Below are positions 1 to 23,277 of a stretch of DNA of 64,000 nucleotides, one piece after another; the stretch's first letter is position 1, and each line of letters starts with the position of its first letter. A program made the translations under genes and the position numbers. The notes beneath the pieces are model-generated. The model was not told the DNA's origin. It did no database searches and was given only the letters and a program-made list of their open reading frames with translations. The DNA is from Pseudovirgaria hyperparasitica (taxonomy: Eukaryota): NCBI GenBank assembly GCA_010093815.1, contig ML996572.1; one strand, given 5' to 3'.

Positions 1-2355
1 ATAGGTTTCGTGAACTATTATCGTAAATTCATTATAGGTTTCTTACGAATTACGGCGCCGCTTAATAAACTCATAGAGAATGGCGGTAAAATCCCCATAG
101 GTGGGCGAGCATAGTACAAAGCTAAGTCGGTCGAGATATAGTTGACGCCGGAAGCGTGAGATACGTTCCGATCGTTAAAGAATTGCTTTATAACTACGCC
201 GATTCTTAGGCATTTCGATCTCGAGAAGCATATTTAGGTCGAAACAGACGTATCTAGATTCGTAATTACTAGAATCATTAGTTAACCGCATAAAGATGCG
301 AAAGACAAGGTGCAATAGCACCCGGTCGCCTTCTTTTCCCGTAAAATGGCGGATATAGAGACGCGTTATAACACGCACGACCAGGAACTACTCGTAATTA
401 TTAAGAGTTTCAAGCAATGGCGACATTATTTAGAAGGCTCCATATATTAGATTGAATTATTATCGGATTACGTAAATCTACGTTACTTCATGTCGACTAA
501 GGTCCTTAATCGCCGACAAGTACGTTAGGCTAAGTAGATGTTAATATTTAACTTTAAAATCTTATATAAAGCTAGAAGAGAGAATAAAGTAGATCCTCTA
601 TTACGGCGTGAAGATTACGAGAAATCGTCGTAGAATGACGTAGATAGTTGGTGTAATTTAGACTATACTATACTATAGATACTAAAAGACTAGTTATCTA
701 ATAGAGTGCCGGAAGCCAGGACACTTTCGGCGACTCTCCGCGGGAATTAGAGCGGGCATTAAGTAATCTAAACTAATGTCTAAGAAATAGAGCAAATCCT
801 CGAAGACTTGATTAAATCTACCTAGAATTCTGATGTATTAGCAAAGAAAGTCATGAGTATAAAGGGAATGGCTATAGAACCGCCGTAGTTATTAAGGTGG
901 GAACGACGATCGGACGCGATCTACTTCTAAGGCCGACTCTACGTGCCGGAAGGCGGCTTACGAATCGATGTTTTAAGGGAACAGCACGATTACGCGTTAG
1001 TAGGGCACTTCGGCGTTATAAGGACGGTCGATTTAATCCGAAGGACGTACGACTAGCCGGGTCTTTATAAATATATAAAAGACTACGTAAAAACGTGTAA
1101 CGTTTACCAGCATACGAAAGTATATAGACACTTACTATATAGCGAATTAAGGCCATTACCTATGCTAAAGGAAGCATGGAAGGAATTATCGATGGATTTC
1201 ATTATAGATCTACCCCTAAGTAAGTATCTTAGGCATGTTTATAATAGTTTACTCGTAGTTTTAGATAGATTTACGAAGATATTATACTACATCCCTATAA
1301 GGAAGACGATCCAAGCACCGGATCTTATAGATATACTACTTCGTGACGTAGTTCGGCTCTACGGTGCGCCGAACGGCATAGTTTCGGACAGAGGTCCGTA
1401 GATAACGTCTAAGTTTTAGAAGGATTTCTACTATACGCTAGGAATCAAGCGGAAACTTAGCACCGCGTTCCACCCATAAATAGATAGGTAGATAGAGCGG
1501 TAGAATTAGATAGTTAAGGCGTATTTACGCGCATATTATAACTATAAGCAAGATAACTAGGTAAGGTTAGTCTGTATCGCGGAATTCGCGTATAATAATA
1601 GCCGACATGCGTCGACCTACGTAAGTCCGTTCGAAGTAAACTTCGGTCGAAACCATAAAGCGTAGTTTATGGGAACTTAGTGTAAATCAGAGTAGCCTAA
1701 CGTTAAGGCGACGGAGATTACGATAGAACTATTCCAAACGCAAAGAAGCGTTATAAAGTTATTATAAGATACTATAGATTATAGTAAATCGCACTATGAT
1801 AAGGGCAGAAAGCCTATAATCTTTAATATTAGAGATAAAGTTTTACTAAATAGTAAAAATATTCGTAGTATCAGGCCGAAGAAGAAGCTTAACTATATGA
1901 TAATAGGTCCATTTAAGGTTACTCGTGTAATTAATGACTAGGTATATGAGTTGAAACTCCCTCCCACGTTAAAGATACATAATATGTTCCATATTATGCT
2001 TCTCGAGCTATTCCATGCCTTATCGTTACCGGATCGTTCTAAATAGACGTTATATAAAGTAGTTATATAAGGAGGTGCGGATATCTACGAAGTTAAGTAG
2101 ATACTAGGCCAATAACGTGCCGAAGATGGCACGTGGCTATATAAAATTCGTTGGAAAGGGTATAATCCTAACGAAGATACTTGGGAACCCGTAATATACA
2201 TTAGCAAAGCAGCGATGTTAGCGTATAAGTAGCGATTAGCAAAGGAAGCCGCGGAATCGTAGAGAATTATACTAAAGTACGGCGATTCAACGTTTTTTAG
2301 TATAGTTCGGCGCCGAGGACGGCCGCCTAAAAGGAAGAAGATAAAAGAGACATAG
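1..2355 (+). pseudogene. pol of A1 (RT end, RNase H, integrase, chromodomain, C-terminal RRRGRPPKRKK), inactivated by RIP
   Basis: One reading frame interrupted by RIP-type stops. Chromodomain at about 2080-2200; AT-hook-like motif at 2308-2340. Confidence 0.9.
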
Positions 2356-2710
2356 ATCTTTAAAACATTCCAAGGAATTAAGAAACTTCCTTAGAAAGTT
2401 CGAACTTAGAACTTTAAAAAATTAACTAAAAAAGAGACTTAGAAAAATGATTTACTAAGAGAAATGGACATCGAAAATCGGTGCCGATCGGTATAGATCG
2501 GTATAGATTACTAAAGAGATTAAAGAAGTTATTATCAAAGAAAGATGAAATTAAGGAAGCTGAAAGAAAATACGAAGATCTATATAGATCTATATAAACT
2601 CGCACTAATCTATCTAGAAGAAGCAAGATCGCTTTAAAATTAAAACTGAAAAAACCAAAACGCTAGATAAAAGAGACATATTAGTACTAATTGGTGTAGA
2701 TCCAAACCGA

Positions 2711-3605
2711 TTAAGTCGGAGTAGGAGTAGAAGTACTAATTACCGCGATAGTTACATCTAATTCCTTCCGCTGGTTCTTATTTAGTATAGTGTAGAGCTT
2801 TATGATATAAGTCTCTAGCCTTTCGTTCCGACGCTATAAATTCTATATAGCGCGCCTTATAGCTATGAACTCCTCTATAGAAACCTACGGAGCGGCGGAA
2901 CCCGGGACGGAGAGGGACAGACCGGCACGGGCACGCTAAGAATTATATAAATCAGCGAAAAGATTCAACGATCGGTATAGAACCACATACCGTTGGTATA
3001 GAAACTTCTAGATTAGAGCCATCTTCCCTAAATTTACGGCTCTTTAGCACGCGCGAGGAAGGAACCTTAGCCTTTTTACTAGAACCTTTTCTAGGAATTT
3101 TAATATCGCCGGTATATAGAAAGAAGTCCGAAGTAGTAGAGATTTTAGCACTATTATAGAGATTAATACATATTAGTAAGAATCTATAACAATTTAAGAA
3201 AAACGATATTACCTAGTAATCGCGGTAATAATAGCTATAGTAGATTCTAATAAACCCTTACGGATCTTATTAGAATCGTACTCCTAGGCGTAACCCTTAC
3301 CTTAGGTATATAGCTCGTAGAAAGCCTTCTCTAAGGCGTTACGATCGGTAGTACCACGCTCCTTATTAGTAGGGGTTACTAGAGGCCTAGTAGTAATCTA
3401 TACCGATATAAGTAAATCTACGTAAAGTTCTTCGAACTTACTTAAATACCTATAAGTAATGACGCTTCTTAGTTATATAAGTGCCGTATATTATAGATTT
3501 AGTACCGCCGTAAGTAATGTATGACGGAAAGCGACAACCATAATAATATATAGCTAGATTATTAGAGCCCGGCCTAGGTCGGGGTAGATTAATAGCTTTC
3601 GACAT
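2711..3605 (-). pseudogene. Spliced antisense accessory gene of element A1 (Cys6 zinc-cluster-like motif, basic region, coiled coil); start may lie further upstream
   Basis: Minus-strand introns at 3449-3398, 3212-3151 (GTAATA..ACTAAT..TAG) and 2990-2936 (GTATGT..GCTGAT..TAG). Splicing gives one frame whose only stops are RIP-type TAG/TAA. Motif Y-G-T-Y-x6-Y-L-* reads C-x2-C-x6-C-L-Q after de-RIP (inferred). Confidence 0.7.
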
Positions 3606-4176
3606 ATCGGTAATATATGCGAGATAGGGATTATTTAAAGGCGCCTATTTCCGCGCCGATTACTTTAGAGCGTCAAGATTTCGGGAAACTATATTATGAT
3701 TATTATTGATTTATGCGGATTATTGCGAATTATGTTATTACTAGCTAAGGACGGCATGAAAATTAGTAAATTGCGTAAATCGCACTAAATAGTAGTAAAT
3801 CTATATAAATCTATGTCTATAAGGATCGGGTGATATACCTAATGATCTAAAAAACTCTATAAAGAGTTGAGAAGTTTTTTAAAGAAAGGAATATTTCTAA
3901 GAAAAGATTTTGATATAGGTAGCACCTAGGCTTACCTAATCACATCACGTGATACGCTAGGCCTAATTAGGTAATCTTACCTATGTAAGAAGTTAAGATA
4001 GATAAAATCTAGTTTATTAGGAAAACGCTTGTATAAATCTTAGATCGGTGAATATCGGTAAGTATCTAAGACGAAGCGTAGAGAACGACTAAGGTCTTAC
4101 GAGACTTAGGATAGGGATATAGGGATAGGTAACGATCTAGGTCGCTAAGGGTAGCTTCCTAGAGGGAAGGGATAAT

Positions 4177-4404
4177 TATTAGGACTTAGCCTTAGGTAGG
4201 ACTCGATCTATATATACCTTAGCTAATAGGGTTAGGAGGTGACGTGAAGGGCGGTAAATAGTTACGTGCTAGATAGATCGGCGTCCCTTTATATATATAC
4301 TCTCGGATTCCTACCGAAAGGGTTCGGTAGTAATTCGTTCTATGATAGAATATACCCCATTGTTCCATCTAGCTATACTACTATCCAATAATCCTATTCT
4401 TACA
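4177..4404 (+). repeat. 3' LTR of A1 (228 bp)
   Basis: Follows the PPT, starts TATTAGG (RIP of TGT..), ends CTTACA, has a TATA box at about 4289-4299, and matches 19443-19670 at the same length. Confidence 0.92.
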
Positions 4405-4433
4405 AATATACCCTATTATTCTATCTAACTATA
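4405..4433 (+). repeat. Internal fragment of the 5' LTR of A2, stranded between the A1 and B insertions
   Basis: AATATACCCTATTATTCTATCTAACTATA matches the family A LTR (4349-4377). The LTR sequence resumes at 12480-12511. Confidence 0.85.
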
Positions 4434-4671
4434 TGTAAAGAGTGAAGACGTAGGATAGTAGTCTAACAGTTTATAGAGAGACATAGGAATGTATTTATAG
4501 GGTAGTCTCACTCTTATACGAGGTTGATTCCTAACGAGTAGGAGTCGGTTTATACGGTCTACTTATATAGTGACCTCGCTTAACTTAGCTAACTCGACCT
4601 AGCTCTGGCCACTACGTGGCTGCATGGATTAGAATAGTCCATATAGGTCCGTTATGGTTCCCGTCCTAATA
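4434..4671 (-). repeat. 3' LTR of element B
   Basis: Direct repeat of 12242-12479, adjacent to the minus-strand PPT AAAAAGAAGAAGGA. Confidence 0.93.
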
Positions 4672-5150
4672 ATATCCTTCTTCTTTTTATGCTTCGCCCT
4701 AAAGTACTTAAGTATATATAATCCTAAGTCTCTATAATCCATCGTGTATCTATATATCCGTGACTAAGTTTCTATGACGTCATAACCATCCTTAATATAG
4801 GTAAACTCGAGATTCTAGTTCACTTTTACTAGTTTATGTACGCGCTTATCCCTTACTTTGTGGCTACTACCTAGGACACGTGATTACCACTCTGGTCGAG
4901 CATATATTTAGCTTCGCTCGCCTTTGATTTTATTCTCTAGTATATCCACCTCGCTCTCAAGGTAAGTCGTTAATTCATATACTATCTTCCCTAGTTCAGG
5001 TTTAGAAGGGTCTATTATGGTCCATTCTTATTAGAACCGGTCCTATATGACCCATTCGCGTTATTACGGTCACTGATTTAGCTTTATTAATTACCGTTAA
5101 GGGTGGACGAATATTCCTTCCTTAGATCTTTAGCTAACATGTATATATAG

Positions 5151-6466
5151 ATGTCTAATACTAGTCCTATCTCTAAGCCTACCTCCTCCTCTCGTAAGAC
5201 TCGCTCTAAAGGCATCGCCTCCTCCCCGGCCACGCCGGCTAAGAAGTCTACCCATCGCGGTAGTATAAAGGCGCGCTCCAAGTCGGAGAAGAGAGTAGCT
5301 AGGGCTGCTACTACTACTTCTACCTCTACCACTAATGTAGCCACTAGTCGCTCTAATCCAGGTGATCCTAGTACTGAATTTATGGATAAAGCGGTCGTAA
5401 GTTCTCCCCTCGCTCTAACGCGTACGCCGCCTACTCTACCTCCTCTAGAGGATGAAGAAGATCTCGTTATAGATAATGATCGCGAGCCCTCGCGCTCACC
5501 CACGCCGCCGCCTCGCCGCTCTTTCTTCCGGTCTAACATAGACCGATTTAGTCGCTCTAGGTCCTTTTAGAACCTTAACATCCGCTCTAAACCCCAGCCT
5601 ACTAATAATAAGGCCTAGGTCGCTGAGGATACTAAACGTGGTCGCGGTTTACGCTATAGGAAAACGGCGAACTACGGTTTAATATACTATAAGTGTATTA
5701 AGGGCCATGCGGCCGGCTCTAAATATCTCTTTCGCTCTAACTCTAGCATTAGCTACTGCTCTACTAACCGCGACGGGCCTATACGCCCTATCTTTACTCT
5801 GCCTACCCGCTGCCGCCGCTATGCCGTAACTAGTAAGACTTGTCTATAGGTAAGTATAATAGGCTATCTTGGTCTAGTGTAATCTAAAGTTATCCGCGCT
5901 GATACATTCTTAGGTTCCTATGCGTATATAAGATATATATAATGACCTTCGCGTCCGCGAGACCCTCGGGGGTCCTTATAGCTATCTACCTACTATATAG
6001 AGGGAGTTTAGGGAGCGCTATAAGCTCTTTCTAGAGGTTATTAAAGTATAAGTTGCGAACACGTTAATTATTTTTAATACCTATTAATATTTCTAGCCGC
6101 CGCGAGATCCCTAGCGCCTAGGCTACCCATTCTAGGGAGTCTATTCTAGCCATAGAGGCCGTAGAGAGGATTCGCTCTATCCCCCCCTATCCGTCTCGCG
6201 CTACTAACGGATCTCGTAAGAGGTCTACTATTTCTCCCTCTAAGTCGCCTCGTAAGAGGGTATATATTCCCTTCTAGATTATTCTAGATCGTATTAGCTA
6301 ACTTTAGACCCAGTCGCTGCGCTCCGGTGCTTAAGGCTCTTCCCTCTAGGCTCTAACGGATCGAGTTATTACTCTAGAGGCTAAGGTCGTCGTCCTCCGC
6401 CGCTATATCGTGCGGTTAAAGAGAACTATACTAGAGGTTAGAACGGATGATGAGATGGAGGAGTAG
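5151..6466 (+). pseudogene. Spliced antisense accessory gene of element B (S/T/K/R-rich N-terminus, Cys6 zinc-cluster-like motif, NLS-like RKRS..SPRKR, C-terminal coiled coil)
   Basis: 5'-UTR intron 4962-5150 (GTAAGT..GCTAAC..TAG) ends directly before the ATG. Coding introns at 5850-5913 (GTAAGT..GCTGAT..TAG), 6048-6096 (donor RIP-mutated to ATAAGT) and 6260-6307/6313 (GTATAT..GCTAAC). The spliced frame is continuous except for RIP-type stops and contains YYKC..C..CRRYAVTSKTCL*|VP. Confidence 0.8.
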
Positions 6467-6960
6467 CTCTATGGTTCTGGCTCTATGGGTTTGGCTCTGT
6501 ATATTAGCTCTATGTATTCTAGATCTACTATAGGTGGTGCGCGCCGACTCTATTTACCTGGCTTTTATCCGTTTTAGTCCTTTTTAGACCGTTTAGATAC
6601 CCGTCGGCCAGTTCCTAGTAATTTAATTCTTAACTTAACGATATTATATGTGCGCTCGCTTAGCTTATAACTATCGGTTTCTACATTCTAATTTTCCTTG
6701 AGTTACCTAAGTGTGGGCACCGCATATTAATTGGTTTATCTCTATGAATTCTATTAGAGCACCCGAACTAGTAGCCTAGTAGTTATTAGTTCGGGTACTC
6801 TAACCTTTTGTATTTCGTGTTAAGAGTTTAATTCTATGGTGGGGTACCTTTTTAGGTTCTTGGTCCTATATTTTTCTCGTGTGCAATAGTCCATGTTGGT
6901 CCATTCTAGACTCTTCTATGTTGTTCTATTATGGTGTATCGCGTCGCGTTCCTGAAATGG

Positions 6961-9900
6961 TTATTTACGCTTTCTTCGCGTCTGGTAACCGTGCGACGCT
7001 TGAATTATAGGGCTGCCATATAGAGTTTTCCTAGTGCGCGTCTAGATTTCCTAGTTTGGCACTTCGTTCTCTACGGTATCCTTCTTCTTTTTACAACGAC
7101 CGCGACGTCGCTATACTTACATTAATAATACGCTATTCTATACCTTTTGCTTATACGCAGCCATTACCGAACTTAAGATATATACTACTGGTTCCTAGGT
7201 GTCCTCGTCCTCGGTGTAGTCCTTCTAACGGATTCTGTATTTCTAAATACCGTCTTCATCGATTCTATGTTCGATAATATGGTCCACTTCGAACACGTCT
7301 AGTCTATCTTAGGGTATAATAGAGTATAACTACACGTTCGTGCGGCTATACACGTTAGGTCGAAATCTTTCGAGTAGTAAGACGTGGAACACGTTATGGA
7401 TTCTTATATCGCTTCCTAAGTCGAGCTCGTAGGCTCTTATACCGATATAACGTTTGATTCGGAAGGGACCAGCCATTTTATAATCGAGCTTCTTATTTAC
7501 TCGCGACGTTCGTATATTACGGACGTTAAGAAGGACCTCGTCGCCCTCCTCGTACGTCTAATCCTTAGCTAACCTATTATAGTACTTCGTATACGAGTCG
7601 TTTACTTATTAGATTATAGCGCGATAGTTACGTGCGGTTTCGAAGATTTTAATCGCTAATTCCTAAGCGTGGACGTTCACGTCTATTATTCGATTAAATT
7701 AGACCGTCTAAGGCTTAAAACCTATCCTTGGACTGCGTTCGAGGTTCGCCTAGAAAGGTATAATACCTATCGTGCTATAACGACTATTATTATATACGAA
7801 CTCTACTATACTTAGTAGAGAGGCCTAGTCGTCCTACTCGAAATTATAGAATACGCGTAGGTAGGCCTCGAGCGTCTAGTTCTATCGCTCTATCTAGCCA
7901 TCCGTCTAAGGATAAAATACTATAAACATGTTTCTATTCATGCTTACCATTTCGTAGAATAACGTCTAGAATTTAGACGTGAAGGTACTTCCTCGGTCCA
8001 TAACGATCCTTTTTAGTATACTATGGACCTTAATAATCTCGTTCTAGAACACCTGCGCTAGTTCTTTAGATGTAATCGTCTTCTACACCGGGATGTACCT
8101 AGACATCTTTATAAGTCTATCCACGATAACAAGAATAGAATTATAACTCATCCTAAGCATCTCGCTTAGAGATAAGTTAACTATAAAGTCTATAGTAACG
8201 TCTTCCTACATAAAGAGGGGGACTAAAAGAGGCTATAAATTTCTATATGGCTTATGCCTAGGGGCCTTCGTTCTTTAATAAATCGGATAAGTAGCTATCT
8301 ATTCTTCGACGTACTTAGGTATATCTTCCTAAAAATAGTACTAATGAATTAAGCTTAGGGTACGTATATACCTAAAGTATCCTACTAGGTTAGCGTTATA
8401 GTATTGGCTAACTACATTAAATCGCGCGTTACCCGTCGGCATATAGCACTTTCTATTATAGTAAAGTAAGCCGTCCACGAAGGTCTACTTATAGTCTACT
8501 TTAGTCTATAATAACCTATCTTACTATATTTTATATAACTTTAAAACTATCGGGTCTATCTTCTATAGATCCACGATTAACTAGGCGAGGTTAATTAGAT
8601 ATTCACGCCGGGTATTGTCGCCCTTCCTAACAGCGCCAATAAACGGCCTACTAGGGACTTCGGTACCGCGTCTTTGGTCACCGGCTTCGGTCTTAGAGAT
8701 TTAATCACCGGTATCGACGTTAGTATCTCGCTAATCGCCTAATAACTTAAAATCCAACCTCGTCCTTAAGAGTTAGGCCTATAGCTACTCTAGGACCCTA
8801 TAGCTACTATGATCCTAGGCGCCTTCTTCATAGTTAGGTCTTCTTAATATCCTATTAGCTAGGTTTATACTTCTAGGTCGATGGTAGATTATAAAGTGAA
8901 AGTTCGTAAGCTACTTAGCCTATCGAACCTATCGACGGTTTAAAACCGTCGTGCTTATAAACCCCTTTAAGTTATAGTAATTAGTTAGTAACTCGACGTT
9001 ATGTATAGCACCTTTAAGATAATATCGCCACTATTTAAACGACTCTACTATTACTAGTAGCTCTTGGTCATGGATAGTGTATCTAGTCTTAACATCGACT
9101 ATTTTACGCGAGAAGAACGTAACTAGATGCCATTAGACCTTTTTAGACTTAGTTGGTCTAGGCTAGGAGAGAATGCCTAAGATTATAAATCCTAACGCGT
9201 CGGTTTCGACGCGGATAGGTTTGGTCGGGTCGAAGTACACTAGTAATAGAGCAGTTATAAATGCCTCTTTAATTTTCTCGAAGGAGGCCCTTTCGCCTTC
9301 CGATAATTCTATAGGCTACGATTTAATATTACGCTGTTTCTATCTACCGCGGACCGTAATAGACGAATCTATGGTAGTAGTGCGCGTGTTAAGCGGTGCT
9401 ACTAGCCGGGAGAAGTACTTAACGAATTTTCGGTAGTAATTGGCGAATCTAATGAAGACACGTATATCTCGAACCGATTTTAGTTTAGGCTAGTCCACGA
9501 TAGTAGCGACCCTGTCCCTTTCTATGGTTACACCTTAATTAGTAATAACGAAGCTAAGGAAGTTAACGTGGTCCTAGTGGAACTTATATTTAGATAGCTT
9601 AATATATAGCTTATGTTTTTCTAGCCTATCTAGGACTACGCGTACGTGCTAGATATATTCTTCTTCGTTATCCGAGAAGATAAGGATATTATTAAGGTAT
9701 ACGATGCACGTCGTGTTAAGTAGGCCTACTAGCGCGTTATTAATGTACGCTTAGAAGGTCCCTAGCACGTTAGTTAGTCTAAAAGGGACCACTATGTACT
9801 TAAAGTGTCTATAACGGGTCCTGAACGCCGTTTTCCACTTATCGCCCTTCTTAATACGTAGGCGGTGGTAGGCGTCGCGTAGATCGAGCTTGGTAAAGAT

Positions 9901-12182
9901 CTTCATGCGCCCTAGTCTATTAATAGACTCGGAGATAAGAGGTAGTGGGTAACGATTCTTTCGTATGATATTATTTAGGCTACGGTAGTCGATACATAGA
10001 CGGAGACTCCCATCCTTCTTCTTTATAAAGAGGATTAGGGCTCCGGCTAGGGATATACTAGGCCTAATCTATTCTCGCGTAAGGTTCTTTTCGATATATT
10101 CTCGGAGGACCTATAGCTTAGGTTCTAATAGAGGGTAGATGGGTCCGTGTAGAGGTTATTAACCGTCCTCGAGGTCAATAGTAAGATTAGTAGGTTGGTA
10201 TTAAGGTAATTCGGACGAGTCAATCGCTAACGCGACATATTAGTACATTTTATACTAATATGGTAGGTTTTCGTCTACTCTAATACTAAGCTCTCTATTT
10301 TAAGTGAGTGAGAGGACGTAGATAGTAGAGATTGCCTTTTCGTAGTCCTTCTAGAATTATTCGTCGTCGACTAGCTATACTAGGTTCCATTATAGTAGGT
10401 ACATGCGCCAGCTAGCTGTTTTCTAGATAAAGTCTAGTTTCGGGTTATGTTTTTCGAGCCACGGCATACTAAGAATCATATCGAAGGGGCTATCTACCAC
10501 GATAAAGGTTAAGTAGCAGGGTTTCCACTTCCCCCCGCTGTCCTAGATACTATATTTAATAGTATAGGTACCCTACGATTTAATGGGACTATCGATACCA
10601 TGGAAGGTAGCATCTATTAGTACTTGAATATCGACGTTAAGTTCTCGTGCTCGTTAAGTCGATATAACGTTAGTGGCTAAACCGCTATCAAGTATTATAG
10701 TCCAATGTTATCCACGGGGGACCTCGATGGGCCTAGCCTATAGTTCGATATACTAGTTAGCTGGTTATCCCTCTATTTTAGTTACGCCTATGAGTCGCGA
10801 GGGTTTCTTGTAGGCAGTTAGTTTTTTATATTATATACCGGGTAGTTAGGCGCGATGTGTCCTAGCTGCTAGCACTTATAGTATGTAACTAACTTAGTAT
10901 CTATATTAGTATTCGGTGGTTTCCTAGAGCGGTACTCGGGTACTATATGGCCTATCCTACCATAAGTATAGTAGGTGACTTTAGGTCGTTTATACGAGTC
11001 GTTTCTCGCGTCTCGATATATCGACTAGTAGAAAGATCCGCGGTACGGGTCTCGTCTTCTCGAGTTCGTAGAGTAGTAGCACCCACGAGGTGTTCCGCGC
11101 GATCTATTACTAAACCGGTTCTCTTTAGACGATTTCGCATTAGGTTAGATTAATAGGGATAGTCGTGCGCCTATACGACGTTAGTTATTCATTATGCGCC
11201 AATGTCGTTCTACGAGATTCGCGAGTGCCTAAAGGTTGGTAGGGATAGACGTTATAAGGTCGATACGTTCCTTTATACTTAGGTTAAGGGACCTTTTAAA
11301 GTCGTCGCATTATCGAACCATGCGATCTTCCTCGGCTTCTCTCTAGAGAGGTCGGAGGTATTTAAGGAGTTATAACGGGGATTATCTTTCTCGCTATTAA
11401 GTCTTAAAGATATAGCTCTAAGCCCATTCGCGTCGCTCGGCTCTGTCGCCAAAGCATTAAAGGAGGAATTCGGTGAACGTATCCTAGTTATACGCATCCT
11501 TAGGGTGTTCGATTCGATATACCATCTAACGTTTAGATAGCGTTAGGTCTAGGTAGTTCTATGCGAACCTAATCTTATTACTATCGTTCGTGAATAGGTG
11601 GAAGAATCGGCTATACTAGTAAGCCTATTCGTGAAAGCTCCTCCTGGTTTTACCGTCGAAGTAAGGTGGTTTCTTAGGCCGAGGCAACTAGAATAGTAAT
11701 GGACTTGGTTAGACTGTTTCGGCTTAAGTTAGTCTATATTAGTATAGGTTAGTTACTACTAGCACTAAAGCGCGTAGTGCGGCTTCGAGTCTAGCGGTTC
11801 GTCCTCGCGCTTTATCGAGTTCGCGAAGTTACTATTTAAGCTACGCCTAACGCTACCTTTCCGTGTATAGCCTAGTATACACGTTATCGTGAGGCGTGGT
11901 TAACGTTAGTCGGTTCTAACGAATTAGTTTATCAACGTTAATAGGGTCTGGTCTTATAGTAAGGATAGGTCTAGTATAGTGTGAACTGGACCGCGATGGA
12001 GTATAATAGACTCCTTCCTTATTATCTAGGTAGTCTTCCACGGTTACACGGAATACCGTACTAGTTATTAGTGCGATAGCTTATAGGGTATACTCATCGG
12101 TGGAGGTGGTCGTAGAGAGACTATTCTCCTCATTTAGGTTTAGGGAGAGTCTCTCGTAGGAGGTCGTGCCACGGGTATTATG
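6961..12182 (-). pseudogene. gag-pol of element B, inactivated by RIP (ends approximate)
   Basis: Gag zinc knuckle (Y)YKC*QLGHIAPN(Y) at about 10843-10885, slippery AAAAAAC then TAA at about 10818-10827, protease LDSG at about 10681-10692, [15 protein letters not shown] at about 9982-10020 and CIVYLNNILIFS at about 9673-9708, integrase F(Y)P*TDG*IER at about 7885-7917, chromodomain YRIR*KDYTEDEDT*EP at about 7188-7240. Confidence 0.92.
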
Positions 12183-12241
12183 GCGTATAGTAGGAGCTAT
12201 CTCTATAAGCTACCGTCGTGCTATATAGAGAGGAATTAAAA

Positions 12242-12479
12242 TATAAAGAGTAAAGACGTAGGATAGTAGTCTAATAGTTCATAGAGAGACATAGGAATAT
12301 ATTTATAGGGTAGTCTTACTCTCATACGAGGTTAATTCCTAACGAGTAGGAGTTAGTTTATACGGTCCACTTATATAGTGACCTCGCTTAACTTAGCTAA
12401 CTCGACCTAGCTCTAGCCACTACATGGCTGCATGGATTAGAATAGTCCATATAGGTCCGTTATAGTTCCCGTCCTAACA
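12242..12479 (-). repeat. 5' LTR of element B
   Basis: Direct repeat of 4434-4671; ends CCTAACA on the plus strand and is followed by TSD CTATA. Confidence 0.93.
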
Positions 12480-15400
12480 CTATACTACTATCTAATAACC
12501 CTATTCTTATATTTAAATTACTCCCTATATAGTACTATAGTTAAGATAGTCTAACTAGAACCGAGAAGGTTAACACGATCTACTATAGGGATAAGTAATA
12601 CTATATTAAATAATAGAGATTCTCTATAATTAGTATTAATCCTAGCTATTTCTAACTAAGAAGTAGAAATATTAGACTAAATTACGGAGCTTTTAGATAA
12701 AGAAATAGTAGATACGCTAAGTAACTTCTAATAATATAAAGCCGGATAATAAGTCGTAGCGGAGCCACGTAAGGTATTATAATAAACTATTACTAAACTT
12801 TAGGAATACGTCGCGAATTAGACTTAAGAGATTTAAACTCTTAAAGAATAGATAGAACGCGCGAAACTCCTTATAAAGAGACGAGAACTTAAGGAGTCTC
12901 TTAAAGAACTACGCCGAACGATAGTAGGTAGACGACTTCCTATACTAATTTAGGCGGAATTAGTTTACCTACCATTAGAGTTATAATAATCTACCGTATA
13001 CCCGGCCGCTTCGTTACCGATTTACTCTACTCCTTCCCTAGATATACTAAAATCTAAAGATCTAACTATATTTATAGAGAAGAACTAAAAGGAGTAGAAA
13101 GACTAGAAGAGAGACTACAAAAAGTACTTCCTTAATAACCCTCTACTCTTTTCTACTAAAGTATAACATATTTCGTTCGGAGAACGATACCTAGACTTAT
13201 AATCCCGCGATTAATAGAATAGATAGAAGGAAGTATAGCTACTATCTACGATAACCTAGGAATATTTAGCTATATTTATACTAAATACTCTCGGAACGGA
13301 TAGAGAACGTAAAAGAAAGGCACTATCTAAGTTAAGAAGTGTAGTATAACGACTGAACTAGATATCTACTTAACTACTATAATACCTCTAAGACCTATAG
13401 AATAATATCCCTATACTATAGGAAAATATTTATATATTCTAGTTTCGCGAAGTACTACTTCCGTTAATCCGCGAAAGACTAGAAATAGTATTATTAAGTT
13501 TTAACTATCTATATAAATTAGAGGAGAAAGCTAATAAATACTACTATATTCTTAAGAAACGCGGCTCTCTAGGTAAAACTAACGAACCCTATATAGATTA
13601 GAAACGAGGTCGATTAAATACGTTCGATTAAGAGTAACCTTACTATAATTAGCGCTAGAAGAGCGTAAATCGGGGTAGAAACGCGTTAAGAGAATACTAA
13701 AATAATTAAGGCGGTACTTCTTAATATAGAAAAGGATAAGGTATAGACTTAAATATAACGCCTATTATAAAATAGTAGGATTATAGTATACTTCGTTACT
13801 ATAAGTATAGAGAAATAGAATATATTTCGCCTAACTATAAGAATCTAAAAAAAGAATAGGCTAGTATATAAGATCTAACCGCATTCTTAGCTAAATTATA
13901 TATACTTAGGAGAAGCTATAGCGCCTTCCGGCGAGTAAAGATCTAATATTACTAAAAGTATCGTTATCTATAGTAAATAGTAATAAAACTATATAGGCCC
14001 TCGTAGATACTAGTATAGAAGATAACTATATTTTATCGATTCTTATAAAGGAGTATAGATTATCATATAATCTTAGTAAAGTTAGCTAAACTATTATAGT
14101 TAATAGATATAAAGTTAGAACTTTAGATAAAGCTATAATAAATTATAAAGTTCATAACTTAAAGATAATAAAATAGTAGATATCTAATAAATTTATCGTA
14201 GCTAATATTAGCTAATAGAATATAATTCTAGGGATGCCTTAGCTTAGACGCCTAAACCCTATCCTTGATTTTTAGAAGGAGATATTAACGTTCCGATAAT
14301 ACTATAGTAAATTATACTAGTAAATTATAACTATTAGTAAGGAGGCATAGAACCTCGCTATACGGACCTAATTATTACTAATCTATCTTATATCCTTATT
14401 AATTATTAATAAAGATAAGGATAATAGTAATAATTAGGGCGAAGACACGCTATCTAACGTATATTCGTAGTATGCGGATATATTTTTAGTAGGAGATATA
14501 TTACTTCTCCCTAATCACGGGCTATATAAGCTAAAGATTAAGCTCGAAGAGGGAGTGGACGTCCCTTATAGCCTACTTTACCTACTTTTAAGACTAGAAC
14601 TTAAAGTTCTTTATAAATATATTAAAGAATACCTTAGAAGAGGCTAGATACGTTATAGTACGTTATTAGCTAGTATATCTATTCTCTTCGTAAAGAAGAA
14701 AGACGGAAGTTTATATCTATATATCGACTATTAGGTACTAAATATAGTAACTAAGAAGAATCGTTATCTATTACCGCTAGTTAGTAAATCTTTAGACTAA
14801 TTAATAAAGGTAAAGTACTTTATAAAGCTAGATTTATAAGATATATATTACTAGCTTTAAATTTATCGTGGAGATAAGTGGAAAACCGCATTTCGGACTA
14901 GATATAGTTATTTTAAGTATACTATTATGCTATTTAGGCTAATAAATACGCTAGGAGCGTTTTAAGGATATATTAATACTATACTTATAGAATTACTTAA
15001 CGTGATTTACGTAGTTTATCTCGATAATATACTAATTTACTCCGATAGTATATAGGATTATAAAGAACACGTGAAATTAGTACTAAATCGTCTAAGGTAG
15101 TATAAACTCTACGTAAAATTATCTAAATATAAGTTTTACTAATAAGAAGTTAGGTTTCTCGGCTTTATTATAATATATAGCGGCCTAAAAATAGAGCTAG
15201 AGCGTGTAAAGACTATTATAGAATAGCTAGAACCTACTACTATACGTTAAATTAGAATATTTATAGGTTTCGTGAACTATTATTATAAATTTATTATAGG
15301 CTTCTTATAAATTATAGCGCCGCTTAATAAACTTATAGAGAATAGTAGTAAAATCTCTATAGGTAGGCGAGTATAGTATAAAGCTAAGTTAGTTAAGATA

Positions 15401-17977
15401 TAGTTAACGCTAGAAGCGCGAGATACGTTCCGATTATTAAAGAATTACTTTATAACTACGCTAATTCTTAGGTATTTTAATTCTAAGAAGTATATTCGGG
15501 TCGAAACTAACGCGTTAGAATTTATAATTACTAGAATTATTAGTTAACTATATAAAGATACGAAAGATAAGGTATAATAGTACCCGGTTACTTTCTTTTT
15601 CTATAAAATAGTAGATATAGAGACGTATTATAATACGTATAACTAGAAACTACTTATAATTATTAAGAGTTTTAAGTAATAGCGATATTATTTAGAAGGC
15701 TCTATATATTAGATTAAATTATTATCGGATTATATAAATCTATATTACTTTATATCGACTAAGGTCCTTAATTACTAATAAGTATGTTAGGCTAAGTAGA
15801 TATTAATATTTAACTTTAAAATCTTATATAAAGCTAGAAGAGAGAATAAAGCTAATCCTCTATCGTAGCGTAAAGATTATAAGAAATCGTTATAGAATAA
15901 CGTAGATAGTTAGTATAAGTTAGACTATACTATACTTTAGATACTATAAGACTAGTTATCTAATAGAATACTAGAAGCTAGGATACTTTTAGCGATTCTC
16001 CGCGGGAATTAGAGCGGGTATTAAGTAATCTAAATAAACGTCTAAGAAACTAAGAAAACCCTTAAAGACTTAATTAAATCTATCTAGAAGTCTAATATAT
16101 TAGGAAAGAAAGTTATAAGTATAAAAGGAAGTACTATAGATCTACTATAGTTATTAAGGTAGGAATAATAATTAGACGCGATCTACTTCTAAGGCTAACT
16201 CTATATACTAGAAGGCGGCTTATAAATTAATATTTTAAGGGAATAGTATAATTACGCGTTAGTAGGGTACTTTAGTATTATAAGGATGGTTAATTTAATC
16301 TAAAGGACGTATAACTAGCCGGGTCTTTATAAATATATAAAAGACTATATAAATACGTATAATATTTACTAGTATATAAAAGTATATAGATACTTACTAT
16401 ATAGTAAATTAAGGCTATTATCTATACTAAAGGAGGTATAGAAGGAATTATCGATGGATTTTATTATAGATCTACCCCTAAGTAAGTATTCTAGGTATAT
16501 TTATAATAGTTTACTCGTAGTTCTAGATAGATTTATAAAGATACTATACTATATCCCTATAAGAAAGATAATCTAAGTACTAGATCTTATAGATATACTA
16601 CTCTATAATATAGTCTAGCTCTATAGTATACTAAATAGTATAGTTTTAGATAGAGGTCCGTAGATAATATCTAAATTTTAGAAGGATTTCTACTATATAC
16701 TAGGAATTAAGCGGAAACTTAGTACTACGTTCCATCTATAAATAGATAGATAGATAGATAGAGTAGTAGAATTAGATAGTTAAGGCGTATTTACGTGTAT
16801 ATTATAACTATAAGTAGAATAACTAGATAAGGTTAGTCTATATCGCGGAATTCGTATATAATAATAGCCGATATATATTAATCTACGTAAGTCCGTTTAA
16901 AGTAAACTTTAGTTAGAACTATAATATATAGTTCTTAGAGACTTAGTTTAAAGTAGAATAACCTAATATTAAAGTAATAGAAATTACTATAGAACTATTC
17001 TAAACGTAAAGAAGTATTATAAAGTTACTATAAGATACTATAGATTATAGTAAATTATACTATGATAAGGGTAGAAAACCTATAATCTTTAATATTAGGG
17101 ATAAAGTTTTACTAAATAGTAAGAATATTTATAGTATTAGGCTAAAGAAGAAGCTTAACTATATAATAATAGGTCTATATAAGATTACTCGTGTAATTAA
17201 TAACTAGGTATATAAGTTATAACTCCCTCCTATATTAAAGATATATAATATATTCTATATTACGCTTCTTAAGCTATTTTATACCTTATTATTACTAGAT
17301 TATTCTAAATAGATACTATATAAAGTAGTTACGTAAGAAGGTATAGATATCTATAAAGTTAAGTAGATACTTAGCTAGTAACGCGCCGAAGATAGTATAT
17401 AGCTATATAAGATTTATTAGAAAGGATATAATTCTAATAAAGATACTTAGGAACCTATAATAAATATTAGTAAAGTAGTAATATTAGTATATAAGTAGTA
17501 ATTAGTAAAGGAAGCCGTAGAATTATAGAGAATTATACTAAAGTACGGTAATTTAACGTTTTTTAGTATAGTTTAGCGCTAAGGACGGCCGCCTAAAAGG
17601 AAGAAGGTAAAAGAGATATAGATCTTTAAAATATTCTAAGGAATTAAGGAACTTCCTTAGAAAGTTTAAACTTAGAACTTTAAAGAATTTAACTAAAAAG
17701 GAGACTTAGAAAAATAATTTACTAAGAGAAATGGATATCGAAAATCGGTGCCGATCGGTATAGATTAGTATAGATTACTAAAGAGATTAAAGAAGTTATT
17801 ATTAAAGAAAGATAAAATTAAGAAAGCTAAACGAAAATATAAAGATCTATATAGATCTATATAAACTTATACTAATCTATCTAGAAGAAGTAAGATCGCT
17901 TTAAAATTAAAACTAAAAAACTAAAAACACTAGATAAAAGAGATATATTAGTACTAATTAGTATAGATCTAAACTAA

Positions 17978-18871
17978 TTAAGTTAGAGTAGAAGTAGAAG
18001 TACTAATTACTATAATAGTTATATCTAATTCCTTTCGCTAGTTCTTATTTAGTATAGTATAGAGCTTTATAATATAAGTCTCTAGCCTTTCATTCTAATA
18101 CTATAAATTCTATATAGCGCGCCTTATAGCTATAAACTCCTCTATAGAAATCTATAGAGTAGTAGGACCTAGAATAGAGAGGGACGGACCGGCGCGGGTA
18201 CGCTAAGAATTATATAAATTAGCGAAAAGATTTAATAATCGGTATAGAACTATATACCTTTAGTATAGAAACTTCTAGATTAGAGCTATCTTCCCTAAAT
18301 TTATAGCTCTTTAGTATATATAAGAAAGGAACCTTAGCCTTTTTACTAGAACCTTTTCTAGAAATTTTAATATTACTAGTATATAGAAAGAAGTCCGAAG
18401 TAGTAGAGATTTTAGTACTATTATAGAGATTAATATATATTAGTAAGAATCTATAATAATTTAAGAAAATAATATTATCTAGTAATCGCGGTAATAATAG
18501 CTATAGTAGATTCTAATAAATCCTTACGGATCTTATTAGAATTATACTCCTAGGCGTAACTCTTATCTTAGATATATAGCTTATAGAAAGCCTTCTCTAA
18601 GGCGTTATAATTAATAGTACTATACTTCTTATTAGTAGAGGTTACTAGAGGCCTAGTAGTAATCTATACTAATATAAGTAAATCTATGTAAAGTTCTTTA
18701 AACTTACTTAAATATCTATAAGTAATAACGCTTCTTAGTTATATAAGTACTATATATTATAGATTTAGTACTACCGTAAGTAATATATAATAGAAAGTAA
18801 TAACTATAATAATATATAGCTAGATTATTAGAGCCTAGCCTAGGTTAGGGTAGATTAATAGCTTTTAATAT
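17978..18871 (-). pseudogene. Second, more degraded copy of the family A antisense accessory gene
   Basis: Colinear with 2711-3605 at an offset of about 15266. Confidence 0.65.
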
Positions 18872-19442
18872 ATTAGTAACGTATATAAGATAGGAATTAT
18901 TTAAAGACGTCTATTTCCGCGCTAATTACTTTAGAGTATTAAGATTTTAGAAAACTATATTATAATTATTACTAATTTATATAGATTATTATAAATTATA
19001 CTATTACTAGCTAAGGATAGTATAAAAATTAGTAAATTATATAAATTATACTAAATTATAGTAAATCTATATAAATCTATATCTATAAGAATTAGGTAAT
19101 ATATCTAATAATCTAAAAAACTCTATAAAGAGTTAAGAAGTTTTTTAAAGAAAGGAATATTTCTAAGAAAAGATTTTAATATAGGTAGTACCCGGGCTTA
19201 TCTAATTATATTACGTAATACGCTAGGTCTAATTAGGTAATCTTACCTATATAAGAAGTTAGAATAGATAAAATCTAGTTTATTAGAAAAACGCTTATAT
19301 AAATCTTAGATTAGTAAATATTAGTAAGTATCTAAGACGAAGCGTAGAGAATAACTAAGGTCTTACGAGACTTAGAATAGAGATATAGAGATAGATAATA
19401 ATCTAGGTCGCTAAGAGTAGCTTCCTAGAGGGAAGGGATAAT

Positions 19443-19670
19443 TATTAGAACTTAGTCTTAGATAGAACCTAATCTATATATACCTTAGCTAATAGGGTTA
19501 GGAGGTAACGTAAAGGGCGGTAAATAGTTACGTACTAGATAGATCGGCGTCCCTTTATATATATACTCTTAGATTTCTACCTAAAGGGTTTAGTAGTAAT
19601 TCGTTCTATAATAGAATATACTCTATTATTCTATCTAACTATACTACTATCTAATAACTCTATTCTTATA
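19443..19670 (+). repeat. 3' LTR of A2 (228 bp)
   Basis: Follows PPT AGAGGGAAGGGA; matches 4177-4404. Confidence 0.92.
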
Positions 19671-19897
19671 CTTAAAGTCTTAATCCTATACTTACTTGCT
19701 AAATAACCTTAATAAATATACTCTAAATACTTATCGGACTTTATAAATACCGCCCTATAGATTAAGCTATACTTCTTATAAAATAAGTAAGGGAAAGGTA
19801 TCTCGTTACCCTTATAATTAATTAAAATAGATAAAGTAACTCTCTATTTCACCGGATTAGATTTAGAAGGCTTAACTAATTTTATAACTCTAGATAT
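19671..19897 (-). pseudogene. Truncated Zn2Cys6-like ORF in relic C, interrupted by A2
   Basis: Frame reads (I)SRVIKLVKPSKSNPVK*RVTLSILINYKGNEIPFPYLFYKKYSLIYRAVFIKSDKYLEYIY*GYLASKY. Tyr codons fall at x2-x6-x9-x2-x9 spacing, the Zn2Cys6 pattern if TAY derives from TGY by RIP. Confidence 0.6.
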
Positions 19898-21544: not shown

Positions 21545-23277
21545 ATGGGAGCGAATCAGTCCTCCAACACAGGCAGTGCGGGCGCGTCGCAAAATGGTGG
21601 GGAAGTAAAAACCAGTTATTACGAACTGCTTGGCGTAGAACGTCAGGCTACAGATGACGAGTAAGATGGGAATAATATTCTTCTCATGTCTGCTCACTCC
21701 GCTAATGTGCCAGACTCAAAAAAGCGTACCGCCGTAAAGCGCTCGAGCTACATCCTGATCGTAATTATGGCGACGTCGACCGAGCGACCAAGCTTTTCGC
21801 AGAGATCCAGGCCGCGTATGAAGTCTTATCTGATCCCCAGGAACGCGCATGGTACGACTCTCACGAGCAAATCATACTACGTGGGGGTGAGCCCACTGAT
21901 GAGGGCAACTACGAAGCAGATTTGGGGATAACTTCTGCAGACGAAGTCACTGCGTTGATGCGCAAATTCAACCGCAATGTAGACTTTAGTAATTCACCCA
22001 GCGGCTTCTTCGGATTCCTGCGAGATATTTTTGAGAAATTGGCAAAGGAAGAGATGGCTGCAGCGCATATGGTCGGCGGGCAGGCGAGGGACTATCCCTC
22101 GTTTGGACACAAAAACGACGACTACGATGATGTTGTGAGGGAGTTCTACGCCGTTTGGATCAGCTTTGCAACTCTCAAGACATTTTCATGGAAACACAAA
22201 TATCGAAAGTCAGAGGCAGACGATCGCTGGCAGAGACGTGCTGTAGACAAGGAAAATGCAAGATTAGCTGAGCAAGGGAGGAGAGAATTCAATGAGGCGG
22301 TGAGGACATTGGTGGCTTTTGTAAGGAAGCGCGATCCCAGATACACGCCAAATACGCAAACAGATGATGAGCGTGCCAAGGCTATGCGGGATGCTGTCAA
22401 GGCTCAAGCTGCGCGACAGAGAGCGCAAAATGAAGCTTTGAAGAACCAAGCTATCCCAGAATGGGCAACAAGGAGAGCGCCTGACGAGCTTGAGGAGAGT
22501 GAGGAAGAGGTGGTGGAGGAAGAGCACTTCGAGTGCATGGCATGCAAGAAAACCTTTAAGAGCGAAAAGCAATGGGATGCACATGAGAAAAGCAAGAAGC
22601 ACCAGAAAGCAGTCCAAACCCTGAAGAAGAAAATGCGGAAGGAAAATGCTCATTTCGGTTTAGACGACGACTTCTCGAGCAGTGGTGGCGTAGTCACTCC
22701 AGTCGAAGTAGAAGCTGAAGACTACGAGACCGCGAAATCCGTCATTCACCCACACGCAAACAGAGACGAGAACAAAGACGAAGAGACAGGTGAAGACCTT
22801 GCTGAGGTCCTCGAGAATATCTCCGTCGCATCGCAAGTGGAGAATCATGGCACAAAGGTCACTATAGAAGGCGAAACTACCATCAATTCGCCCACGCCAA
22901 CTAGCGCAGACCAAGCCAACGACATTGAGGACTTAACAGCCGCTCAAGAGTCAGACTCCGAGCACAGCGAGCCGGACAGCTCTGAGCAAAACCACAAATC
23001 TGGCTCAGAAATGCCAGTAATAATGAAAAAAGATAGCGACGATTACGATATTTCAACAGTCCCGAGAATGGGTAAAGCTGCCCAGAAGCGGGCGAAGAGG
23101 GCTGCTAAGCAAGCAGCGACTGATGAGGACGAGTTGAGGCATAAATGTGCAGTGTGTAATACAGGTTTTCCTTCGAAGACAAGGTTGTTCCAGCATATTA
23201 ATGACTTGGGTCACGCGGCCCCTGTAACGGCGACAAAAGGTGCAAAAGGTAAAGGTGGTAAAGGTAAAAGGAAATGA
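21545..23277 (+). CDS. JJJ1: J-domain protein with C2H2 zinc fingers (Jjj1/DNAJC21 family, 60S biogenesis co-chaperone); intron 21661-21713
   Basis: YYELLGV..|[18 protein letters not shown]-domain, [18 protein letters not shown], and two C2H2 fingers ([46 protein letters not shown]). Confidence 0.92.

Follow-up and report, generated by a model that had tools for sequence, protein, structure and literature searches.

Antisense ORFs located between pol and the 3′ LTR are described, in the available text of two papers, for Grande of maize, RIRE2 of rice, Retand of Silene and PvRetro13 of Phaseolus, and Boty of Botrytis and Sclerotinia is given there as the non-plant case (PMC7264820, PMC11963269). 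For the plant ORFs the same excerpts propose a nuclear or DNA-binding regulatory role, and the title of one of the references speaks of transcription of Grande from its own promoter (PMC7264820, PMC11963269); the antisense proteins of deltaretroviruses (HTLV-1 and relatives) are cited as analogues in what is accessible of PMC11963269. Both the extra ORF of Boty, brtn, and the chromodomain of this element are mentioned in the available parts of two further papers (PMC8365987, PMC4227169), the ORF being written 'brtn-106' in PMC4227169. In our literature search, Boty brtn was the only fungal case, and none of the papers found reported introns in genes of this type; neither is proof of absence in print. 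To our knowledge, extra antisense genes in LTR retrotransposons are seldom annotated, and their function is unknown. The original brtn paper is reportedly that of Zhao et al. 2011 (Virology 417:248).

Here, we examine a window of 64,000 nucleotides from Pseudovirgaria hyperparasitica (contig ML996572.1 of GCA_010093815.1) and relate a stretch on its minus strand, positions 3605-2711, to these systems. We consider it probable that this stretch is an antisense accessory gene killed by repeat-induced point mutation (RIP), of the kind described for Boty (brtn), Grande, RIRE2 and Retand. The first 21.6 kb of the window are AT-rich (25-43% G+C vs approximately 50% beyond), and positions 1-19670 consist of two related Ty3/Gypsy chromoviruses, families A and B, which are nested and degraded by RIP. 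The 3′ part of pol of the first family A copy occupies 1-2355 on the plus strand. With stops translated as X, frame 1 of this copy matched the Pfam families RT_RNaseH_2 (3.4e-22), Integrase_H2C2 (3.2e-14), rve (1.2e-07), SH3_Tf2-1 (7.4e-15) and Chromo (4.7e-07), and its pol closes with the chromodomain and an AT-hook-like tail, after which comes the first stop, TAG at 2353-2355. The second copy, also on the plus strand, has RVT_1 at approximately 14690-15173, followed by RNase H, integrase and SH3 (Pfam). Family A thus shows the domain order of a Ty3/Gypsy chromovirus, with RT, RNase H and integrase in succession and the chromodomain last. Element B lies on the minus strand at 4434-12479, has 238-bp LTRs, RT, RNase H, integrase and chromodomain, and has a target duplication of 5 bp (CTATA) on its two sides, 4429-4433 and 12480-12484.

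The two family A copies align at 85% (1-4430 with 15263-19696), and within 2300-4433 they differ in 268 columns, of which 231 show C>T or G>A changes towards copy 2 and 18 the reverse. Since the transitions run mostly towards copy 2, this copy represents the same sequence at a more advanced stage of mutation. An earlier note on this DNA had stated that the antisense stretch travels with the element; this is borne out by the same alignment, in which its second, more heavily RIPed copy is real (17978-18871, minus strand; 67 of 242 model codons differ and three extra stops are present). Behind the complete 3′ LTR of copy 1, no more than the final 56 bp of a further family A LTR precede the internal part of copy 2 (4405-4433, 12485-12511). 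It looks as if copy 1 had inserted into the 5′ LTR of copy 2, and element B later into the 56-bp LTR remnant. Two tandem family A copies with one common LTR were rejected as an arrangement, the second LTR consisting of its last 56 bp only. Directly behind the 5′ LTR ends, the first bases of the two families are alike (TTTAAATTACTC at 12512-12525 in A; TTTAATTCCTC at approximately 12231-12241 on the minus strand in B), and presumably are the RIPed primer-binding region. Adjoining the end of the AT-rich block is a 523-codon open frame (21706-23277, plus strand), in which a J-domain-like HPD motif at the start and C2H2-like zinc-finger stretches were read by eye. A search of 1-22000 against Rfam gave no family.

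The antisense stretch is held in the internal region of family A that runs from the pol stop to the polypurine tract (2356-4160, 1.8 kb). The tract itself, AGAGGGAAGGGA (12 nt, 4161-4172, plus strand), stands immediately 5′ of the LTR start, as it does in element B, and the 3′ LTR of copy 1 (4177-4404, plus strand, 228 bp; 19443-19670 in copy 2) begins with TATTAGGAC, a RIPed TG, and ends with TTCTTACA. A TATA run is found near 4290 and the last bases are TTACA, which together with the polypurine tract gives the TG..CA ends and tract by which an LTR is recognised. The nine bases TATTAGGAC at 4177 are the same that open the RIPed 3′ LTR of B behind its own tract; ATTRTTAGGAC matches twice in the window, at the A and B 3′ LTR starts only (0.10 expected), and all A and B LTRs have ACTACTATCY at 19-28 nt from their ends (six matches vs 0.6 expected, one of them unrelated). 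Logan contigs of public runs show joints at 4176 and 4179. Given this tract, LTR start and the joints, a long LTR starting near 2352 or 2676 and enclosing the stretch was discarded; the same tract and LTR-start evidence removes an LTR start at 3984, where TGTAAGAA mirrors the LTR end. Alignment of the whole LTR of B to A is weak, as 2 of 100 dinucleotide shuffles reach its score and a placement at 2562-2781 is equally good. With pol ending at 2355 (plus strand), the polypurine tract at 4161-4172 and the LTR at 4177-4404, the stretch 2711-3605 is internal and antisense to gag-pol. Both the position between pol and the 3′ LTR and the opposite strand, by which an antisense additional ORF between these two (aORF-3R of PMC7264820) is defined, are therefore found here.

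The coding-like signals are confined to the minus strand; read on the plus strand, the stretch falls below its shuffles. Both window copies of family A contain the stretch (2/2), and among the Logan contigs, those of X1 and X2, which are DNA runs, cover all bins of 2404-4005 at no less than pol depth, a summed contig depth and not a copy count. No RNA run was listed among those containing the sequence, and for X3 and X4, with five and four contigs, the kind of run is not on record. A second sample of the same species label (run X3) contains a 2840-nt contig, of depth 2603, which matches within the family A LTR (4185-4310; runs X3 and X4). Next to the match (next to 4215-4310), this contig has a C/G-rich counterpart of the LTR promoter region of family A, with C for T and G for A of the window, which suggests that unmutated, perhaps active, relatives exist.

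Rebuilt from 3605 down to 2711, the gene model joins exons of 156, 185, 160 and 225 nt into 726 nt, divisible by three, and thus 241 codons plus a terminal TAA; six internal stops lie in the joined frame (five TAG, one TAA and no TGA). The three minus-strand segments of 52, 62 and 55 nt proposed as introns by the earlier note are indeed all GT..AG, and their removal joins the exons in one frame. Exon 1 (3450-3605, 52 codons) starts with ATG at 3605-3603, ends in TAG and has 8 Tyr, 1 Cys and 1 His. It is followed by intron 1 (3398-3449, 52 nt, GTATTT...TAG; donor ATATTT in copy 2) and by exon 2 (3213-3397, 61 codons plus 2 nt), which contains one TAA and one TAG stop and has a strong coding-like signal. 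Intron 2 (3151-3212, 62 nt) reads GTAATA...ACTAAT...TAG, with donor ATAATA in copy 2. Exon 3 (2991-3150) is, as the earlier note had it, open and basic: its frame is fully open, contains the peptide quoted there, holds 12 Lys+Arg in 53 codons, and has a purine/pyrimidine codon score above all controls. It sits in an 86-codon open frame (2952-3212), which is open in copy 2 too (18219-18500, 93 codons). Intron 3 (2936-2990, 55 nt, GTATGT...CTGAT...TAG) has textbook ascomycete signals. Exon 4 (2711-2935, 74 codons plus TAA) has three TAG stops and a heptad-patterned C-terminal part; the string I*NL*RRNERLETYI previously read from it is present, its end is a Ser/Thr/Pro tail over a 6-nt repeat, and another frame of this exon has equally few stops.

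The introns differ in quality. Defining a textbook intron as 45-80 nt with donor GTRNGT and a CTRAY branch 8-35 nt before YAG, we found intron 3 to have all of these features, as one of three such candidates with distinct donors on the minus strand of 1-21600. It coincides with a frame change, and copy 2 retains RIP variants of its signals (GTATAT, CTAAT). In intron 2, TAG is present and a good branch (ACTAAT) precedes the end by 22 nt, but the donor GTAATA is non-consensus. For intron 1, no CTRAY branch was seen by eye and the donor, GTATTT, is likewise non-consensus; a perfect GTAAGT 8 nt downstream of it (3441-3436) gives a stop-filled frame. Conservation of this first donor (3449), on which the earlier note had staked its model, failed: copy 2 reads ATATTT, though the change is of RIP type. 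Overall, copy 2 keeps GT in one of three introns, the donors of introns 1 and 2 both having become AT by G>A, and the sole indel between the copies within 2711-3605, at 3199, falls in intron 2.

Such signals have to be weighed against another explanation, namely that the stretch is a noncoding spacer behind pol, a 3′ untranslated region that never was a gene, whose open frames and GT..AG segments would be products of RIP, of the composition of the strand and of having been picked by eye. Loose GT..branch..YAG segments are plentiful, with 11 distinct donors in 895 nt, and this abundance of intron-like segments agrees with a spacer; a textbook intron exactly at the frame change does not. The minus strand of the stretch is pyrimidine-rich, which in itself gives fewer stops on this strand and is thus a further point for a spacer. 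In copy 1, the best-spliced-ORF score was 171 against 134 ± 20 for dinucleotide shuffles (z 1.8), a modest excess reached by 7 of 200 and again compatible with a spacer, while copy 2 scored 155 against 88 ± 21 (z 3.2; 0/200 reach). Among the controls, equally RIPed true pol windows gave z between -1.0 and 2.4; the flank on the LTR side, in either orientation, and the stretch itself read on the plus strand gave -0.4 to -1.0, so that noncoding and opposite-strand controls fall below their own shuffles, a point against a spacer. The scoring program picks other intron sets, equal or better and differing between the copies, and therefore openness alone cannot fix the exon structure; this abundance of competing spliced paths is also a point for a spacer. 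As the region was chosen by eye from 64 kb, the nominal p-values overstate the case. Taken by itself, openness supports something coding-like on the minus strand rather than one specific gene model.

RIP makes transitions only, which leave the purine/pyrimidine string untouched, and it can therefore neither create nor erase purine periodicity; for any such transition-invariant test, the two copies are not independent. In the model frames (241 codons), the purine fractions at codon positions 1, 2 and 3 are.61/.46/.39, compared with.585/.53/.55 in family A pol and.70/.58/.52 in a host ORF. By exon, they are.50/.52/.37 (exon 1),.69/.48/.34 (exon 2),.64/.45/.40 (exon 3) and.60/.41/.45 (exon 4). 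When frames were chosen by fewest stops, the difference between the first and third positions (R1-R3) was 0.183. Shuffles gave 0.035 ± 0.041, with not one in 2000 attaining the observed value, and 38 real noncoding blocks gave a mean of 0.031 (sd 0.095). Such periodicity in the least-stop frames counts against a spacer, and no period-3 tandem repeat that might account for it was found in 2736-3690. A sliding scan blind to stops and splice sites found strong periodicity only at approximately 2650-3600, with the purine-rich phase at coordinate mod 3 = 1, then 2, then 1, matching the model. The flanks at 2350-2650 and 3610-4000 show little periodicity, and both this restriction and the change of phase at the proposed introns tell against a spacer.

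A four-state segmentation with parameters from the gene model itself returned phases 2, 1 and 2; the switch at 3176 falls within intron 2, and that at 3467 overshoots intron 1 by 17 nt. With parameters from element B, the phase model found the same segments, but its gain and its switch penalties cancelled out to a score of 0.0, which 15 of 300 shuffles attained, and pol also went undetected by it; the zero score of this independently parameterised model is a point on the side of a spacer. When a codon score based on purines and pyrimidines was trained on the window's 10 long host ORFs, the model frame came out best of the three in all four exons. Exon 3, with 0.214 bits per codon, is above all 38 control blocks and exon 2, with 0.132, is high; exon 1 (0.014) and exon 4 are inside the control range. 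The spread of copy-to-copy transitions over codon positions proved powerless as a test, pol itself giving p = 0.057 over 2349 nt. Altogether, the RIP-invariant tests favour the proposed frames, strongly for exons 2 and 3, moderately for exon 4 and weakly for exon 1.

The composition of the predicted product carries traces of RIP as well. Beside six TAR stops, its 240 codons include 1 Gln and no Trp, a depletion which, with the stops, reflects the effect of RIP on CAR and TGG codons; changes of CAG>TAG, TGT>TAT and CAT>TAT are seen between the copies. Stops of the TAR kind only and the depletion of Gln and Trp count against a spacer. Compared codon by codon, the copies differ at 67 codons, 14 synonymously and 53 not, and there is thus no sign of constraint after duplication. 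On balance, we regard a noncoding spacer as unlikely, the empty homologue searches described below counting in its favour. Of the proposed antisense gene, exons 2 and 3 with intron 3 form the well-supported core, exon 4 is plausible, and exon 1, intron 1 and the zinc motif are conjecture.

In its residues, the model is basic, with 40 Lys+Arg against 18 Asp+Glu. Over the C-terminal 45 residues, 69% of heptad a/d positions are hydrophobic, compared with 42% overall, and the coiled coil proposed by the earlier note is real as a heptad pattern on the condition that the TAG codons were Gln. Exon 1 contains 15% Tyr, against 5.7% in pol. The single surviving Cys of the earlier note is present there beside 8 Tyr, with one Cys counted in copy 1 and none in copy 2. 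The zinc motif drawn from it is not supported, as it rests on Tyr read as Cys; neither copy keeps a further Cys, and no Pfam match was obtained. A generous six-position C/Y pattern occurred in none of 420 control blocks, a figure to be read with the pattern having been defined after seeing the sequence; it is stop-free at three loci in the six frames of the window, two of which are the two copies of the stretch. The Zn2Cys6 consensus (PF00172) is C-x2-C-x6-C-x5-12-C-x2-C-x6-8-C, and the proposed spacing departs from it with x4 instead of x6 at the second gap. A bolder version would have family A carrying, as an antisense gene with introns, a Gal4-like regulator that combines a Zn2Cys6-type cluster with a basic stretch and a coiled coil for dimerisation. 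As the related family B has an unrelated antisense ORF in this slot, the interval from pol to the polypurine tract of these fungal chromoviruses would then serve as a swappable cargo bay for host-type DNA-binding regulators; we rate this as quite improbable.

Homologues of the stretch were sought widely. Pfam gave no match in any of the six frames of the internal region 2356-4160 (E<=1) and no family, TRP28 (PF04195) included, for the exon frames of both copies (E<=10). A phmmer search with the frame of exons 2 and 4 returned 0 matches at E<=0.001 among 1,835,955,588 representative proteins. Word-indexed searches gave 24 candidates for the frame of exons 1 and 3, one for the 86-codon ORF and 706 for the antisense frame of element B, none of which scored, and the ESM Atlas no usable match. 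From metagenomes, 198 relatives of the integrase of A were found and 80 kept (28-48% identity); tblastn of the A and B antisense frames against these 80 chromovirus loci produced a single hit, at E = 0.57, and no homologue. In six metagenome relatives, the ORFs that follow pol on the minus strand were set aside, since they had no match or were part of adjacent elements or genes (copia gag, ankyrin, RVT_2). The metagenome contig L027 has the top best-segment identity to the integrase of A (48%), and its next gag ORF follows the integrase after approximately 540 nt, so it is without a long region behind pol. The cargo region may be specific to the lineage of A and B.

Element B has the same layout as family A, with 2.5 kb between chromodomain and polypurine tract. 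In this interval, an antisense ORF runs on the plus strand from 5151 to 5570, possibly to approximately 5870, with 139 codons from ATG. It is rich in Ser/Thr/Pro and Arg/Lys, and its purine periodicity, up to R1-R3 = 0.42, is stronger than that of A. Read on through two TAG codons, the frame enters a stretch that has a C/Y-x2-C...H motif; minus-strand frames overlapping this place are open as well. No homologue and no Pfam family was found for this ORF. The regions behind pol of A and B share no protein similarity (best E 0.46) and no collinear DNA similarity, and comparison with the element B protein, which the earlier note had called for, accordingly came back negative.

What A has at this position is unrelated to what B has there, which brings in a second alternative, in which a fragment of a host gene or of an older, unrelated element was captured in reverse by an ancestor of family A and remained a passive relic, never of use to the element. 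In keeping with such a capture, the purine periodicity of the stretch is nearer to that of the host ORF than to the element's own pol, L027 as the nearest metagenome relative has no room for such a region, and transduction is discussed, in the available text of PMC11963269, as an origin of such ORFs. Capture of a host gene sits poorly with the lack of a host-like homologue among the 1.84 billion representatives, and a passive fragment with the full depth of the stretch across the family in two DNA runs and with an apparent start, stop and introns in one piece. We judge this origin without function to be quite improbable.

Returning to an antisense accessory gene as the preferred reading, its working can be sketched from position and composition. 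Such a gene would be transcribed from a promoter of its own, within the approximately 550 nt between the ATG (3605) and the polypurine tract, converging on pol, and would contain two or three short spliceosomal introns. Being antisense to the genomic RNA, these introns would not be removed from it by splicing and would thus persist through retrotransposition; antisense-intron retrotransposition reporters use the same logic. The predicted product would have approximately 240 residues, a basic middle and a C-terminal coiled coil, and, by analogy with the antisense ORFs of other retroelements, could be a nuclear, nucleic-acid-binding regulator of the element. In the copies seen, such a gene is dead, its stops all being TAG or TAA, its Gln and Trp nearly gone and its Cys and His turning to Tyr from one copy to the other.

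Since the copies seen are dead, the practical consequence for this genome is small. If our reading is true, A and B would add a second and a third fungal case, unrelated in sequence, in two related chromoviruses, which would suggest a recurring feature, and antisense introns would be a simple mark of such genes even in RIP-degraded repeats. The purine/pyrimidine tests, immune to RIP transitions, can be reused on other RIPed repeats.

How far, then, does the family A stretch resemble what has been described? Deltaretroviruses, as far as the accessible text on them goes, share antisense coding in the 3′ part of a retroelement and products that are nuclear regulators. The HBZ protein of HTLV-1 combines a basic region with a zipper; it has no sequence relation to the product predicted here, whose basic stretch lies approximately 35 residues from the heptads and is not a bZIP. 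The fungal Zn2Cys6 domain (Gal4-type, PF00172) binds DNA and has a coiled-coil dimerisation element next to it. The likeness is an N-terminal six-position C/Y pattern, a basic stretch and a heptad helix in this order; the differences are that here one position is Cys and the rest Tyr, and that the coiled coil is approximately 135 residues away rather than adjacent. Judged by the available descriptions, Retand differs from family A in being a non-chromovirus, in having a TRP28 domain (PF04195), which Pfam did not find in the family A stretch, and in the size of its region (2.9-6.6 kb vs 1.8 kb). With the plant antisense ORFs in general, the same partial sources show family A to share position and orientation, within Ty3/Gypsy elements that have a long region from pol to the LTR. 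The copies here are all RIP-dead and are likened to Boty brtn by description, not by sequence; on what the available text says of it, brtn is likewise an extra antisense ORF without assigned function, of the pol-to-3′ LTR class, in a fungal chromodomain-bearing Gypsy element.
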